Positions 5,398-51,280 of a DNA stretch of 64,000 nt are shown here, piece after piece. The position numbers and the translations under genes are program-made. The stretch comes from Escherichia coli. Lineage in GTDB: Bacteria; Pseudomonadota; Gammaproteobacteria; Enterobacterales; Enterobacteriaceae. Where the stretch lies: the NCBI RefSeq assembly GCF_036507355.1, contig NZ_AP027877.1. One strand, written 5' to 3'. The first letter of the stretch is position 1. Each line of letters starts with the position of its first letter. The notes under the pieces are model-generated. The model was not told the DNA's origin, made no database searches, and saw nothing but the letters and a program-made list of their open reading frames with translations.

Positions 5398-5490
5398 GGT
5401 GAGGTGGCCGAGAGGCTGAAGGCGCTCCCCTGCTAAGGGAGTATGCGGTCAAAAGCTGCATCCGGGGTTCGAATCCCCGCCTCACCGCCA
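5398..5490 (+). tRNA. serV: tRNA-Ser (anticodon GCU)
   Basis: 93-nt sequence ggtgaggtggccgagaggctgaagg...ctcaccgcca with long variable arm and anticodon loop ctGCTaa. Confidence 0.93.
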
Positions 5491-5493
5491 TTT

Positions 5494-5570
5494 GCATCCG
5501 TAGCTCAGCTGGATAGAGTACTCGGCTACGAACCGAGCGGTCGGAGGTTCGAATCCTCCCGGATGCACCA
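5494..5570 (+). tRNA. argV: tRNA-Arg (anticodon ACG)
   Basis: 77-nt gcatccgtagctcagctggatagagtactcggctACGaaccgag...ggatgcacca. Confidence 0.93.
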
Positions 5571-5634
5571 TCTCTTACTTGATACGGCTTTAGTAGCGGT
5601 ATCAAAAAATCTGCAGTAAAGTAAGTTTCCCGAT

Positions 5635-5711
5635 GCATCCGTAGCTCAGCTGGATAGAGTACTCGGCTACGAACCGAGCGGTCGGAGGTTCGAATCCTCC
5701 CGGATGCACCA
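5635..5711 (+). tRNA. argY: tRNA-Arg (anticodon ACG)
   Basis: Identical 77-nt tRNA-Arg copy. Confidence 0.93.
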
Positions 5712-5773
5712 TCTCTTACTTGATATGGCTTTAGTAGCGGTATCAATATCAGCAGTAAAATAAATTTCCCGAT

Positions 5774-5850
5774 GCATCCGTAGCTCAGCTGGATAGAGTA
5801 CTCGGCTACGAACCGAGCGGTCGGAGGTTCGAATCCTCCCGGATGCACCA
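5774..5850 (+). tRNA. argZ: tRNA-Arg (anticodon ACG)
   Basis: Identical 77-nt tRNA-Arg copy. Confidence 0.93.
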
Positions 5851-5952
5851 TATTCTCCGTAATCATCAGTGATGATGGTTAAGAAGGATTTTCTTACTTG
5901 ATATGGCTTTAGTAGCGATATCAATATCAGCAGTAAAATAAATTTTCCCGAT

Positions 5953-6029
5953 GCATCCGTAGCTCAGCTGGATAGAGTACTCGGCTACGAACCGAGCGGT
6001 CGGAGGTTCGAATCCTCCCGGATGCACCA
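5953..6029 (+). tRNA. argQ: tRNA-Arg (anticodon ACG)
   Basis: Identical 77-nt tRNA-Arg copy. Confidence 0.93.
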
Positions 6030-7346: not shown

Positions 7347-8930
<1,584 letters not shown>

Positions 8931-8936
8931 CAGAAA

Positions 8937-9011
8937 AGAAAAAGGCCACTCGTGAGTGGCCAAAATTTCATCTCTGAATTCAGGGATGATGATAACAAAT
9001 GCGCGTCTTTC
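8937..9011 (-). ncRNA. micA: MicA (SraD) small regulatory RNA
   Basis: Minus-strand reading gives gaaagacgcgcatttgttatcatcatccctgaattcagagatgaaattttggccactcacgagtggccttttt, which matches the MicA sequence as I recall it; ends in a stem-loop plus U-tract. Confidence 0.8.
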
Positions 9012-9079: not shown

Positions 9080-9595
9080 ATGCCGTTGTTAGATAGCTTC
9101 ACAGTCGATCATACCCGGATGGAAGCGCCTGCAGTTCGGGTGGCGAAAACAATGAACACCCCGCATGGCGACGCAATCACCGTGTTCGATCTGCGCTTCT
9201 GCGTGCCGAACAAAGAAGTGATGCCAGAAAGAGGGATCCATACCCTGGAGCACCTGTTTGCTGGTTTTATGCGTAACCATCTTAACGGTAATGGTGTAGA
9301 GATTATCGATATCTCGCCAATGGGCTGCCGCACCGGTTTTTATATGAGTCTGATTGGTACGCCAGATGAGCAGCGTGTTGCTGATGCCTGGAAAGCGGCA
9401 ATGGAAGACGTGCTGAAAGTGCAGGATCAGAATCAGATCCCGGAACTGAACGTCTACCAGTGTGGCACTTACCAGATGCACTCGTTGCAGGAAGCGCAGG
9501 ATATTGCGCGTAGCATTCTGGAACGTGACGTGCGCATCAACAGCAACGAAGAACTGGCGCTGCCGAAAGAGAAGTTGCAGGAACTGCACATTTAG
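9080..9595 (+). CDS. luxS: S-ribosylhomocysteine lyase LuxS
   Basis: 171-aa [28 protein letters not shown]... with the HTLEH metal-binding motif. Confidence 0.96.
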
Positions 9596-9610
9596 TCAGT
9601 GGAACAAAAG

Positions 9611-9645
9611 AAGCCGGGCAGGTGACACCACCGCCCGGTTTTTTT
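9611..9645. terminator. Stem-loop terminator shared by convergent luxS and the HD-kinase gene
   Basis: aagccgggcaggtgacaccaccgcccggttttttt; hairpin followed by a T-run on the + strand. Confidence 0.65.
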
Positions 9646-10756
9646 ACCTTTCAATCACCCGATACTCCACGCTATGTGCTTCATCAGGTTGAGGAACTTC
9701 CAGCCTTGAGGCCATCCGCATCACGACCGCTTCAGGAACTGCATACTCGCGTCTGGCATTTTGCTGCTTCCATTGCGCCCATGGCACTTCAAGATAAACG
9801 ATTTTTACTCGTGCGCCGTAAGCCGTAAACAGGCTGATGAGCTGGCTACGCAGCTGGCGGGTAATGTTCGTTGCATTCCAGATGAACGGCTTTTTCTGGC
9901 GTAAAAAAACGCGCGCCTCTTCTTTTGCCTGTTGCACAATACGCCCGGTGGCGGTTTTGTCGTCCGGACTGGCATTGATTCGCCGCCGCATATCATCAAG
10001 GCTGATAACGTCCATTCCTTGGCACTGTTCATTGATATAGCGATCTTTGCCCATACCCGGTAAGCCACAGAGCAAAATAACCTCAAAAGGTTCAGCCTCC
10101 CAGGGAACAAAATCAGGAGAACTTTGCTCATGGGTCAGGTAATGCCAGCGTGCGGAATCAGACACGAACGAGCGCACTTTTCCCCAACACTGTTGCTCCT
10201 GGCAAAACAGCTCGAACAGATCGATGCGTTCCAGCATTGATTGCCGATCCGGGCTTTGGCGACCAAGCAGATCGGCACGAGCAAGCAAAGCGAGCAGACG
10301 CGTGTCGATGCGCATTGCAGCCGTGAGCAACAAACGCTCCGGTTCCGGACGTTCCAGTAACCATAGCGGTAACCCATGCAGACGCACCAGCGCAACAATT
10401 TGCTCGCGTAGCACGAACGGCGTAGGGATATCGCGCCATAAAATTTGTCGGGCCGTCAGCTCGCCCCGGCGTGCGTGGCCAGGCGACTGAATACGTCCGT
10501 TTTCCTTCACGGTAGTGCTGCGCTTTTCAACGTCATGCAATAACGCCGCCGCCCATAAAACTTCCTGCTGTTGAGCGGGGAGTTGCTGGAATACTGGCTG
10601 AGTAACAAGGGCGTTAAGCACCATTTCGGTATGCACGCCGACGTCACCTTCACCATGATGCTCCGGGTCTTGTGGCGTGTGATGCATCTCCTCAACCCAA
10701 CTGAAACGCTGGCGTAGTGTCGACCAGCGTTTATCGTCGGTAAGCTGCCAAATCAT
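9644..10756 (-). CDS. HD-domain phosphohydrolase fused to a P-loop polynucleotide-kinase-like domain (putative nucleic-acid end-healing enzyme)
   Basis: 370-aa ORF; N-terminal HD motifs (HH at ~33-34, H42, HD at ~74-75 in [10 protein letters not shown]); C-terminal Walker A GLPGMGKD (~231-238) and FIWNATN kinase-like motif; overlaps the upstream ligase gene by 4 bp. Confidence 0.7.
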
Positions 10757-11460
10757 GACTGTTCTCCATAAGCGAACTCATGGGCCATCCGCGCCCGTTG
10801 CCAGTGTCGTTTCCAGTGCACAGTGGTTTTGACATGATTTTTGCGCACATACTTGAAGACGTTATGCGAAAAGTCAGCGACGGAAAACGCATCACGATTC
10901 CGGCTGACAATGCCTTCCAGAGTACAGGGTTGCCCGGTTTGTGTATCCCAGGGATCGAATGCGCCGCGCGCATTGGTCAGCGCCAGAAAATCACGTTGCC
11001 AGTTTTTTTCATCATTCCCCGGCTGCGGGCCGGAGATTTCGGGAACGCAGGGGAAATCAAACAGGGCGGCGTAAAACTGCACCTCTTCCCAGTTCAGCCA
11101 CATATCCTGGCAGCGAACGGCAAACAGGTAAAAGTCCTGTTCCAGCGCGCGGTATTCAATGGAATGAACGGCGTAGAGATTTTCACCAAACAACTCCAGG
11201 TCGCCGAGATCGTTTTTCAGCAGTTGCCAACGCTGGCGAATTTTATAGGTCCATGCCGACTGCGTAGGCGCAGCATGGGAACGGGCAAACACACCGTAGC
11301 GGTTAAGGCAGTTATTTTCGCCGTCGAGTTTTTCTGTGTGCACCAATTGCGTGATGGCCTGTAAATCCTGCCAGTAATCGGCGTTAATGCGGTCATCGCT
11401 GGTGGTGCCAGGGGAGAAAGGATAATGCCAGGTTCTCCCGTATTTCCGTTGGGTATTCAT
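10753..11460 (-). CDS. Minimal ATP-dependent RNA/DNA-ligase-like nucleotidyltransferase (Rnl2-like NTase module)
   Basis: 235-aa ORF with ligase motifs I TEKLDGEN (candidate adenylylation lysine K44), III LFGENLY, IV LEGIV, V FKYVRK. Confidence 0.7.
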
Positions 11461-11685
11461 AATAATCCATTATTTTGTGTGTAATAAATGTACGCCCGCG
11501 AGGGTGCGAGTTATGGGGTTAAAAGAAAAATGTGAGTATCACCCGCGAAAGCGAGGGCGAAGGAAAAAGAGAATTAACAACCTGAGCGAATGCTCAGAAC
11601 CGGTTAATGGTAAATGGAAGAGTTTGGGGCGGCGAAAAGATACACCGAATGAGAGGATAAAACAACCGTTTACAGAATGAGCAAA

Positions 11686-11712
11686 TAAAAAGGGAGCCGC
11701 AGCTCCCTTTGA
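11686..11712 (-). terminator. Rho-independent terminator downstream of emrB
   Basis: Minus-strand gggagctgcggctccc hairpin followed by tttttatttg, 6 bp after the emrB stop. Confidence 0.7.
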
Positions 11713-11717
11713 CAACC

Positions 11718-13256
11718 TTAGTGCGCACCGCCTCCGCCGCCACCTGCGCCAAAGGGCGGTTTAGCAAACCACACCAGCCCCAGCAAGACGAGGAATATCC
11801 CGGCTGACATCCAGAAGATCTCATTTGCGGAAATAATCAGCCCCTGATTGGTGATCTGCTGGGCAATCCAGCCTGATGCCTGCTGTTGCGTCATCCCAAG
11901 CCCTTCCAGTTGACTGTACATCGCCTGGGCATTCGGGTTGAACGGGTTTACCGACTCGGTTAACTGCGCATGGTGCATCGACTCGCGGTTGGTCCACATG
12001 GTTGTGGTTATCGACGTGCCGATAGACCCCGCCAGCGTACGCGTAAAGTTGGAGAGGCTCGATGCCGCCGCCAGTCGTTCCGGTGGCAAACCAGACAGCG
12101 TAATGGTGGTCAGCGGCATAAAGAAGCAGGCCACCGCAAACCCCTGGATAAACTGCGGCCAGGCCGACGCGCCAAAATCCATACCTGGTTCAAAGGTATA
12201 GGCACGCCAGTAGAAGCAGACGGCATACATAATAAAGCTGAAGGTTACCAGTCGGCGCATATCCAGTTTATGCGCGAAGCGGCCGATAATCGGCGACAGT
12301 ATCACTGGAATAATCCCTACCGGCGCAGAGGCCAAACCTGCCCAGGTCGCCGTGTAACCGTAGACCTCCTGCAACAACTGCGGCAGCAGAACAATCGCGC
12401 CGAAGTAGAGCATATACGCGAGGCTGATACACAAACAGCCGATGGTGAAGTTGCGCGACTTAAACAACGACAGATCGACTATCGGGTTATCGTCGGTCAG
12501 CTCCCAGACAATCAGGAAGCAGATAGCCACCACCGCCACCACGGTAAGGATGATAATTTCCTGTGATGAAAACCAGTCCAGCTCTTTACCGCGGTCGAGC
12601 ATAATCTGCAGGCTGCCTATACCAATAACCAGCAGTGCCAGCCCCACGGCATCAATCCGCCGCCGTTCGGTGCGGGTTTCGCGTCCGCGCAGAGTTTGCA
12701 GTGTCATCAACACCACCGCCACGCCAATCGGCACGTTGATGAAGAATATCCAGCCCCAGTGGTAATTATCGCTGATATACCCGCCGAGGATTGGGCCGCA
12801 AATTGGCGCGACAATCACCGTCATCGACCACAACGCCAGCGCGATTGAGCGTTTGGCTGGCGGGTAATTATTCAGCAATAGACTTTGCGAAAGCGGGATC
12901 AACGGCCCGGCGACAATCCCCTGAATCACGCGGAAGAAGATCAGCATATTCAGGCTGCTGGAGACACCACACGCCCACGACGCAATAGCAAAGGCGATGG
13001 TTGACCAGAGGAACAGTTTCACTTCCCCGACGCGCTTTGCCAGCCAGCCGGTAAGCGGGATCGAGATGGCATTTGCCACCCCGAAAGAAGTGATTACCCA
13101 CGTTCCCTGGCTGAGCGATGAGCCCAGATTCCCGGCGATAGTGGGGATCGCCACGTTAGCAATGGTGGAGTCCAGCACCTGCATGAATGTCGCCAGTGAC
13201 AGCGCAATCGTCATAATGACCAGTTGCGCGCCTTCCAGCGGTTTTTGCTGTTGCAT
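11718..13256 (-). CDS. emrB: Multidrug efflux MFS transporter EmrB
   Basis: ORF translation MQQQKPLEGAQLVIMTIALSLATFMQVLDSTIANVAIPTIAG...; 14-TMS MFS. Confidence 0.95.
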   Translation of the reverse strand: MQQQKPLEGAQLVIMTIALSLATFMQVLDSTIANVAIPTIAGNLGSSLSQGTWVITSFGVANAISIPLTGWLAKRVGEVKLFLWSTIAFAIASWACGVSSSLNMLIFFRVIQGIVAGPLIPLSQSLLLNNYPPAKRSIALALWSMTVIVAPICGPILGGYISDNYHWGWIFFINVPIGVAVVLMTLQTLRGRETRTERRRIDAVGLALLVIGIGSLQIMLDRGKELDWFSSQEIIILTVVAVVAICFLIVWELTDDNPIVDLSLFKSRNFTIGCLCISLAYMLYFGAIVLLPQLLQEVYGYTATWAGLASAPVGIIPVILSPIIGRFAHKLDMRRLVTFSFIMYAVCFYWRAYTFEPGMDFGASAWPQFIQGFAVACFFMPLTTITLSGLPPERLAAASSLSNFTRTLAGSIGTSITTTMWTNRESMHHAQLTESVNPFNPNAQAMYSQLEGLGMTQQQASGWIAQQITNQGLIISANEIFWMSAGIFLVLLGLVWFAKPPFGAGGGGGGAH

Positions 13257-13272
13257 CACACGCACCTCTGGA

Positions 13273-50917: not shown

Positions 50918-51280
50918 TGGTGGAGCTGGCGGGAGTTGAACCCGCGTCCGAAATTCCTACATCCTCGGTACTACATGCTTAGTCAGTCTTTACATTCGCT
51001 TGCCAGCTGCGGACGGACACGCCACTAACAAACTAGCCTGATTAAGTTTTAACGCTTCAACCCCAGGCAGGGCTTCCACGCGATCTCTTTTGGGTTTGAC
51101 CTCTCTTGATCCCCGTCCTAAGAGCGGAGGCTAGGGAGAGAGGGCTCTAAGCAGGTTATTAAGCTGCTAAAGCGTAGTTTTCGTCGTTTGCGACTATTTT
51201 TTGCGGCTTTTTACGAGGCCAACCGCCCCTCGGCATGCACCTTGGGTTTCGCAAATCCCGTCGAATCCAGAATCAGCCCC
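50918..51280 (-). ncRNA. ssrA: tmRNA (SsrA)
   Basis: Minus-strand reading starts ggggctgattctggattcgacggg and ends gttcaactcccgccagctccacca; encodes tag peptide ANDENYALAA (gcaaacgacgaaaactacgctttagcagct); 363 nt. Confidence 0.95.

Follow-up and report, generated by a model that had tools for sequence, protein, structure and literature searches.

Why do some Escherichia coli chromosomes carry, between luxS and emrB, two overlapping genes for putative end-healing and ligating enzymes, and which broken ends would their products repair? We addressed this question in a 64,000-nt stretch of E. coli DNA (contig NZ_AP027877.1 of RefSeq assembly GCF_036507355.1; hereafter the window), for which an initial annotation had proposed an inserted RNA repair cassette at this site. 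As judged by sequence, the pair is the Escherichia member of the known LIG/HD-Pnk two-gene operon, a conserved module for end healing and sealing; it is an ordinary member of a biochemically studied family known since 2007 and does not represent a new kind of system. The remaining interest lies in what LIG joins. Our results suggest that the pair probably heals and seals breaks, with RNA as its most likely substrate.

Both genes lie on the minus strand as intact open reading frames (ORFs) with ATG starts. The upstream gene, LIG (10753..11460), encodes 235 amino acids and the downstream gene, HD-Pnk (9644..10756), encodes 370. The ORF listing and the sequence place the LIG stop codon and the HD-Pnk start codon in a shared ATGA (10753..10756, minus strand), a 4-nt overlap of the kind expected for translational coupling, and the strand, sizes and overlap given in the initial annotation were exact. 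In RefSeq, the E. coli proteins are named 'RNA ligase family protein' (LIG) and 'ATP-binding protein' (HD-Pnk).

Domain architecture of LIG and HD-Pnk

LIG matches the Pfam family RNA_ligase (PF09414, E = 1e-27, residues 38-205) and is a predicted homologue of ATP-dependent polynucleotide ligases that consists of the adenylyltransferase domain alone. Its motif I, KLDGEN, is encoded at 11331..11314 (minus strand) with Lys44 as the predicted AMP acceptor. An alignment of 20 homologues from two phyla showed that motifs I, Ia, III, IIIa, IV and V are invariant or nearly so, and the corresponding residues of the window protein are K44, R60-S61, F91-G-E93-N, F113, E182-G-I-V and K203..R206-K207. In the same 20 homologues an N-terminal motif, KYGRTxHxPFSPGT.SDD (11445..11392, minus strand), is also invariant, and this motif lies outside the Pfam ligase domain.

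A search of the sequences of solved structures with LIG gave only spurious additive matches, to hemocyanin repeats and designed repeat proteins, and a fold search was therefore needed. The match to mollusc hemocyanin (phmmer against PDB sequences, residues 77-173, E = 8e-8) is a sum of weak matches to eight repeat units and was rejected as a sign of homology. With the AlphaFold (AF2) model of LIG, a single domain with pLDDT 86, the top matches were Naegleria gruberi RNA ligase, T4 Rnl2, archaeal Rnl3 and the LIG domain of fungal Trl1, whereas DNA ligases scored about 1000-fold worse than these RNA ligases. The matched proteins are 80-150 residues longer than LIG (TMt 0.30-0.42). Neither Pfam nor the AF2 model revealed an OB fold or any other C-terminal nucleic-acid-binding domain in the 235 residues, and the absence of an obvious OB domain had already been remarked on at first inspection.

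HD-Pnk is by sequence a homologue of bifunctional end-healing enzymes that combine an HD phosphoesterase with a polynucleotide kinase. The predicted HD domain spans about residues 1-210 (HHGEGD at 10660..10640 and LLHDVE at 10543..10526, minus strand), and the predicted P-loop kinase domain spans residues 225-370 (GLPGMGKD at 10066..10043, minus strand, with Asp254, Arg257 and Arg336). The C-terminus matches Pfam AAA_33 (E = 9e-32, residues 226-355), and the N-terminus gives a weak Pfam HD match (E = 0.025, residues 63-139). Among NCBIfam models, the N-terminus matches HDIG (6e-4) and the HD domain of the CCA-repair enzyme (7e-5), and the C-terminal half matches the kinase part of bacterial Pnkp. 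The window protein has the HD metal-ligand residues H34, H42, H74-D75, H94, H127 and D162, all of them unchanged across 13 diverse homologues, and the kinase residues K237, D254, R257 and R336, which are invariant in the homologue alignment.

The closest solved relatives of HD-Pnk by sequence are Clostridium thermocellum (Cth) Pnk and T4 Pnk, and in the alignment with the Cth kinase D254 and R257 fall opposite its ISSDFCR segment. The AF2 model of HD-Pnk (pLDDT 92) matches the folds of 4gp6, mammalian PNKP, 1ly1 and Mucorales RNA 5'-OH kinases, and also those of HD-bearing tRNA nucleotidyltransferases (3wfp). Pfam, NCBIfam, the solved-structure searches and the AlphaFold fold searches all agree with the initial assignment of a ligase, a P-loop kinase and an HD phosphoesterase to this locus.

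The LIG/HD-Pnk family and related repair systems

The LIG/HD-Pnk operon has been described in Deinococcus in 2007 (PMC1997131) and in Runella slithyformis in 2017-2018 (PMC6097658). Runella HD-Pnk consists of an N-terminal HD 2',3'-phosphoesterase and a C-terminal 5'-OH kinase (PMC6097658; Munir & Shuman 2017, J Bacteriol 199:e00739-16), and Runella LIG is a putative ATP-dependent ligase that forms an enzyme-AMP adduct (PMC6097658). The Runella locus encodes the same two proteins in the same order as the window, and its two ORFs overlap likewise (PMC6097658). It differs in having two more upstream genes, for Tpt1 and for a methyltransferase-HIT fusion; both are absent from the E. coli locus, where emrB and luxS flank the pair. 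Compared with homologues from Cytophagales and Chitinophagales, the window proteins show identities of 54-58% (HD-Pnk) and 58-63% (LIG). The pair of Runella, itself a member of the Cytophagales, presumably belongs to the same tight clade as the window pair, its identity being estimated through these relatives. In the 2017 Runella abstract, HD-Pnk homologues are said to occur in 11 phyla and often to form an operon with LIG.

The operon of D. radiodurans, DR_B0100-DR_B0099-DR_B0098, is carried by a megaplasmid (Blasius et al., PMC1997131). DR_B0100, also named LigB or DdrP, adenylylates at K40 and seals nothing, and DR_B0098 has an HD domain and a kinase that is active on the 5' end of a 5'-OH DNA oligonucleotide, the kinase being the only activity established for the Deinococcus HD-Pnk (PMC1997131). 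Like the window pair, the Deinococcus genes have LIG upstream and overlapping ORF ends, and both proteins are homologous to those of the window over nearly their full length: LIG is 35% identical to DR_B0100 (E = 6e-26) with the lysine of TEKLDGEN in common, and HD-Pnk is 29% identical to DR_B0098 (E = 4e-33, residues 5-369 against 14-408). Unlike in the window, a macro/PARG-like gene (TIGR02452) lies between the LIG and HD-Pnk genes, and the megaplasmid operon is radiation-induced and has a DNA-damage phenotype (PMC6300522).

Two better known repair systems follow a similar logic. In T4, the 5' kinase and 3' phosphatase of Pnkp heal the ends and the ATP-dependent ligase Rnl1 or Rnl2 seals them; the T4 kinase fold (1ly1) matches HD-Pnk and the Rnl2 fold matches LIG, although the identity is only 14-26%. 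In T4 Pnkp, however, the kinase is N-terminal and the C-terminal phosphatase is of the HAD (DxDxT) type, whereas HD-Pnk has the reversed order and an HD phosphatase, and searches with Pfam and NCBIfam gave no HAD match in HD-Pnk. Rnl1 and Rnl2 also have C-terminal domains that LIG lacks.

Pnkp/Hen1 of the C. thermocellum type is likewise a bacterial RNA repair cassette with interdependent partners, and its kinase domain (4gp6) is the closest solved relative of the HD-Pnk kinase. Bacterial Pnkp differs from the window pair in carrying kinase, calcineurin-type phosphatase and ligase in one polypeptide and in its need for the Hen1 methyltransferase. The window pair has no metallophosphoesterase domain and no Hen1 gene beside it, and HD-Pnk scored 33 bits against the NCBIfam model bacter_Pnkp (TIGR04075; cut-off 750), with the kinase part alone matching. 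The domain make-up is unlike that of T4 or Pnkp/Hen1 in its HD phosphatase and OB-less ligase, as first proposed, but the novelty that this seemed to imply is removed by the known LIG/HD-Pnk operons (PMC1997131, PMC6097658).

The third system, RtcB2-PrfH, resembles the predicted role of LIG/HD-Pnk in that it handles ribotoxin-cut RNA: it rescues and repairs ribosomes whose 16S rRNA has been cut by colicin E3 (PMC9304027). RtcB joins 3'-phosphate or cyclic phosphate to 5'-OH directly with GTP, whereas LIG/HD-Pnk would use the opposite end chemistry.

Genomic context in other bacteria

Relatives were scanned with one genome per species; 414 species were matched, and the neighbourhood counts given here refer to 80 loci among the matches listed. 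LIG is located directly upstream of HD-Pnk in all 80 species-level loci. The two ORFs overlap by exactly 4 nt in 33 of the 75 loci where the junction could be measured, and overlap or lie no more than 4 nt apart in 73 of them. This tight adjacency argues for co-translation and probably for a complex of the two proteins. Between Enterobacterales and Bacteroidota, HD-Pnk is 54-58% and LIG 58-70% identical, and the pair forms a separate, tightly conserved clade.

RtcB adjoins the pair in 23 of the 80 species, which belong to the Gammaproteobacteria and Bacteroidota, and is upstream and co-oriented in 22 of them. The taxa include five Serratia species, Bacteroides, Phocaeicola, Parabacteroides, Dysgonomonas, a Mucilaginibacter and a Flammeovirgaceae genome. 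Neighbour clustering of the 80 loci identified RtcB as the sole association of the pair that crosses phyla. In 16 of the 80 species PrfH is encoded between RtcB and LIG, with a score of 309 bits against a cut-off of 167. Loci with the order rtcB-prfH-lig-hdpnk, in which the extra genes lie about 2-3 kb upstream of LIG, were seen in Serratia and several Bacteroidota (L005-L007, L018-L022, L028, L036, L041, L049, L052, L054, L056, L068, L082 and L086). In seven more loci (for example L029, L044 and L079) rtcB is followed directly by lig without prfH, and a 24-aa prfH remnant was found at L072. The RtcB2-PrfH papers examined describe a two-gene operon and make no mention of its extension by lig and hdpnk (PMC9304027). 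The genes alr, tyrB, dnaB, uvrA, holB and tatD were considered as functional partners and rejected as lineage-specific housekeeping neighbours. In three Bacteroidota loci (L071, 5398..6135; L079; L086), rtcB or lig is directly preceded by an ORF of ~245 aa that is very basic and matches no NCBIfam model.

Distant LIG-family domains are fused to a polynucleotide-kinase-like domain, and in one case also to a 2H phosphoesterase. Two such relatives from the P0162/P0185 set are a 650-aa protein with the order RNA_ligase, AAA_33 kinase, RNA_ligase, and a 1166-aa protein with a 2H-SAK ('Swiss-army-knife') phosphoesterase, two RNA_ligase domains and an AAA_33 kinase. The activity of 2H phosphoesterases is directed at 2',3'-cyclic RNA ends. 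A LIG-HD-Pnk fusion was looked for as Rosetta-stone evidence and this line was dropped, the long LIG relatives that were checked having a kinase and a 2H phosphoesterase but no HD domain.

LIG homologues are also encoded by 33 jumbo or huge phages. The 462-kb uncultured huge phage LR756500.1 carries the whole cassette (L091, 4584..6787), in which a LIG homologue of 364 aa, extended at its N-terminus by ~140 aa, precedes an HD-Pnk homologue of 368 aa by 2 nt. The occurrence of LIG in huge phages, and of the whole cassette in one, fits the view that large phages carry genes for RNA repair to withstand attacks by the host on translation (PMC7824862). Members of the LIG/HD-Pnk family are found on plasmids as well. 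A search of the PADLOC-DB 2.0 defence models with LIG and HD-Pnk gave no family at E <= 0.01 and lends no direct support to an anti-phage defence or counter-defence role in E. coli.

Proposed function and alternatives

We think it probable that LIG and HD-Pnk are a module for healing and sealing breaks, most likely those in RNA. The P-loop kinase domain of HD-Pnk would phosphorylate 5'-OH ends and the HD domain would remove 2',3'-cyclic, 2'- or 3'-phosphates, and the two activities together would leave 5'-PO4 and 3'-OH ends. LIG, made from the overlapping upstream ORF, would self-adenylylate on Lys44 with ATP and then, we infer, join the healed ends. Since sealing has not been seen with purified homologues alone, LIG probably requires a partner or a particular substrate. 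Among possible substrates, tRNA or rRNA cut by transesterifying ribotoxins would be the likeliest, and the pair may thus work in parallel with RtcB on ends that the latter is unable to join.

In favour of this function, the ligase motifs and the catalytic residues of the HD and kinase domains are intact and are invariant across phyla. Our leaning toward RNA is mainly one of context, because of the linkage to RtcB and PrfH. It is further based on the fusions of LIG-family domains to a kinase and a 2H cyclic-phosphodiesterase, on the presence of the RNA 2'-phosphotransferase Tpt1 in the Runella cluster, on the 33 phages with LIG, one of them with LIG followed by HD-Pnk, on the rank of RNA ligases above DNA ligases in the fold search, and on a leader without a LexA box. 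A role in the repair of RNA cut by ribotoxins had been suggested in the initial annotation; it is plausible, and it gains support from the RtcB/PrfH linkage in relatives. This linkage in Serratia and Bacteroidota also provides a concrete and testable hypothesis for the substrate of the ligase.

Several observations weigh against this function. No member of the LIG family is known to seal RNA or DNA alone, and neither Runella LIG nor DRB0100 acted on any of the 3'-OH/5'-PO4 substrates tried (PMC6097658, PMC1997131). A single in vivo phenotype is known for the family, the ionising-radiation sensitivity of a Deinococcus HD-Pnk mutant, together with radiation induction of the operon, which points to DNA (PMC6300522). 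In E. coli the pair does not adjoin rtcB2-prfH, and in the window emrB is found upstream instead. A literature search gave no E. coli phenotype or expression data for the pair, and the locus tags UTI89_C3047 and UTI89_C3048 led to no paper.

Two features of HD-Pnk itself also count against it. In its Walker A motif, GLPGMGKD, an Asp follows the Lys where Ser or Thr is usual; this Asp is nearly invariant across the clade and is a peculiarity of the family, whereas the P-loop of Deinococcus DR_B0098 reads GxxGxGKS. Moreover, frameshifted or truncated HD-Pnk alleles occur frequently in the public data for E. coli. They include a 252-aa form that goes out of frame just before the P-loop (P0055, 216 member sequences), a 288-aa form that starts at residue 83 and lacks the HD motif (P0027, 165 members), and a truncated form in E. 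coli assemblies (P0036). Such forms are probably pseudogenes in some lineages, and their frequency indicates that the module is dispensable and suggests ongoing decay.

DNA repair was left unconsidered in the initial annotation, although that is the phenotype demonstrated for the Deinococcus homologue (PMC6300522). Here HD-Pnk would clean 3'-phosphate/5'-OH DNA breaks of oxidative, radiation or nuclease origin, and either LIG, perhaps with a DNA-end-binding partner, or LigA would seal them. We regard this as the main alternative, to be taken seriously albeit rather unlikely. The window proteins are homologous to Deinococcus proteins whose operon is radiation-induced, and loss of DR_B0098 sensitises the cells to ionising radiation (PMC6300522); mitomycin C appears as well in the title of Schmier & Shuman 2018. 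DRB0098 phosphorylates a 5'-OH DNA oligonucleotide (PMC1997131), one study found DNA ligation by DR_B0100 with DR_B0098 and PprA (as summarised in PMC6300522), and the Runella HD-Pnk paper speaks in its title of a 'DNA/RNA end-healing enzyme'.

The window pair, however, is just 29-35% identical to the Deinococcus pair and belongs to a separate tight clade (54-58% identity between Enterobacterales and Bacteroidota). At ~30% identity, and with a macro/PARG gene between its members, the Deinococcus pair is so distant a branch that its biology need not transfer to E. coli. The only recurrent neighbours of the window clade are the RNA and ribosome repair factors RtcB and PrfH, the nearest folds of LIG are RNA ligases with DNA ligases ~1000-fold worse, and the 2H cyclic-phosphodiesterase domain found in fusions has an activity specific for RNA ends. 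In addition, the leader lacks a LexA box, and E. coli has neither PprA nor Ku.

A second arm of ribosome and tRNA repair is also conceivable, although we hold it to be unlikely. The lead here is the recurrent rtcB-(prfH)-lig-hdpnk operons. LIG/HD-Pnk would heal and seal 16S rRNA or tRNA breaks that RtcB2 cannot use, those with a 2'-phosphate, or with 3'-OH/5'-OH ends after phosphatase action, and LIG would be active solely in complex with HD-Pnk on a structured or ribosome-bound substrate. Such a need for the HD-Pnk complex would explain adenylylation without sealing of naked oligonucleotides.

Alternatively, LIG may not be a strand joiner at all. Its lysyl-AMP would then serve for 5'-adenylylation or capping, or for AMP transfer elsewhere, and HD-Pnk would process ends on its own, for example for RtcB or for decay. 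Two independent laboratories have found self-adenylylation without ligation on many substrates (PMC6097658, PMC1997131), and capping was raised as a possibility by Blasius et al. (PMC1997131). The lack of an OB fold or other nucleic-acid-binding domain in the 235 residues and the invariant motif KYGRTxHxPFSPGT.SDD outside the Pfam ligase domain are also in line with a role other than joining. Nevertheless, we consider this improbable. Motifs III, IIIa, IV and V, all invariant in LIG, serve the later steps in classic ligases, which are covalent nucleotidyltransferases. LIG is strictly paired (80 of 80 loci) with an enzyme predicted to make ligase-ready 5'-PO4/3'-OH ends, for which sealing is the simplest explanation, and the ligase domain of Pnkp/Hen1 also needs a partner for its activity.

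Distribution in E. coli and origin of the locus

The segment that carries the pair (9601..11717, 2.1 kb) is strain-variable and absent from K-12, as had been supposed in the initial annotation. The K-12 derivatives C600 and DH5alpha lack the pair and have an unrelated 63-nt luxS-emrB spacer with its own hairpin, which shows no significant similarity to the 2.1 kb past the first 5 nt after the luxS stop codon. Of 5426 complete E. coli genomes, 999 (~18%) carry the segment, always as a single chromosomal copy and never on a plasmid. This presence/absence polymorphism offers the pair in genetically tractable B2 strains such as ST131 EC958, with K-12 as a natural null. It also corrects the assumption (e.g. 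PMC1997131) that E. coli has no polynucleotide kinase, since ~18% of the complete genomes encode a predicted one.

The pair is also located between emrB and luxS in Citrobacter amalonaticus, Kosakonia, Klebsiella spallanzanii, an Enterobacter sp., Superficieibacter and another Escherichia species, and it adjoins emrB in Phytobacter; altogether the shared site was recorded in at least seven further genera of the Enterobacteriaceae. The segment is flanked by neither direct nor inverted repeats, an integrase and a tRNA are likewise absent from its borders, and the GC content of 52-56% is like that of the neighbouring genes, without compositional anomaly. Because of this synteny, the native composition and the absence of repeats, the locus is better read as an old emrB-luxS resident of the Enterobacteriaceae that has been lost from ~80% of E. 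coli, including K-12. This is the parsimonious reading, and it replaces the initial view of the segment as an insertion, loss being the better explanation.

Both LIG and HD-Pnk are under purifying selection. Between the window and ST131 EC958, dN/dS is 0.15 for LIG and 0.12 for HD-Pnk; between the window and Citrobacter it is 0.03 for LIG and cannot be computed for HD-Pnk, for which dS is saturated. Between genera the dS of the pair is saturated and that of luxS nearly so. Within E. coli, the cassette shows a dS of ~0.13 between the window and EC958 (L002), about seven-fold the 0.018 of the adjacent luxS, and the closest cassette in complete E. coli genomes is no more than 98.2% identical to that of the window, although the flanks are 99% identical to K-12. 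The high dS, together with such identities beside K-12-like flanks, indicates that the cassette alleles are deep or imported.

That the 2.1 kb is instead an accessory island gained recently, as first suggested, and for instance a mobile cassette for defence or counter-defence, agrees with its patchiness in E. coli (18% of complete genomes), with family members on plasmids and in huge phages, and with cross-phylum identities of 54-70% that imply horizontal transfer at some point in the family history, but it is very improbable given the common position in at least seven other genera, the plain borders and GC content, the absence of the cassette from E. coli plasmids and of a PADLOC match, and E. 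coli alleles older than their flanks.

Leader region and neighbouring features

The leader of the operon (11461..11717, minus strand) comprises the 257 nt upstream of LIG and holds the emrB terminator hairpin (11710..11689, minus strand), detected by terminator scan and folding. A candidate sigma-70 promoter, with -35 TTGTTT at 11665..11660 and -10 TATCTT at 11642..11637 (minus strand), is suggested by conservation; a consensus promoter scan of the leader gave no call. Downstream of it, at 11605..11582 (minus strand), lie an invariant AACCGGTT box and a hairpin, CTGAGC-ATTC-GCTCAG, with a U-rich tail; the hairpin itself occupies 11597..11582. In alignments of 10 Enterobacteriaceae loci the candidate promoter, the AACCGGTT box and the hairpin are all conserved. 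The hairpin is stable in folding (z = -3.8), and RNAalifold found no covariation in it among the 10 loci. The hairpin and box may act as an attenuator or, equally possibly, as a protein operator. Neither a LexA box nor a sigma-54 promoter was found in the leader, and Rfam families gave no match there, the only one nearby being the MicA sRNA next door.

At the other end of the pair, a bidirectional terminator-like hairpin (about 9607..9645) lies between HD-Pnk and the convergent luxS (9080..9595, plus strand). By RNA folding it has -26 kcal/mol on the plus strand, with a U7 tail and z = -4.7, and -20.4 kcal/mol on the minus strand, and since it folds on both strands it would be able to terminate both convergent genes. 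The HD-Pnk stop codon (9644..9646) lies inside the U/A tract of this hairpin. Folding on both strands agrees with the initial placement of the pair between the emrB terminator and a hairpin shared with luxS.

The gene upstream of LIG is emrB (11718..13265, minus strand), and gshA (7374..8930, plus strand) lies beyond luxS; the corresponding locus tags in UTI89 are UTI89_C3049 for luxS and UTI89_C3050 for gshA. The remaining features of the window are ordinary landmarks: the MicA gene between gshA and luxS (8940..9011, minus strand), a tRNA-Ser gene followed by four tRNA-Arg(ACG) genes (5398..6029, plus strand), and tmRNA (ssrA; 50918..51280, minus strand). Several naRNA4/REP-type repeats are present near 17.7 kb and at 33.8-34.0 kb of the window.

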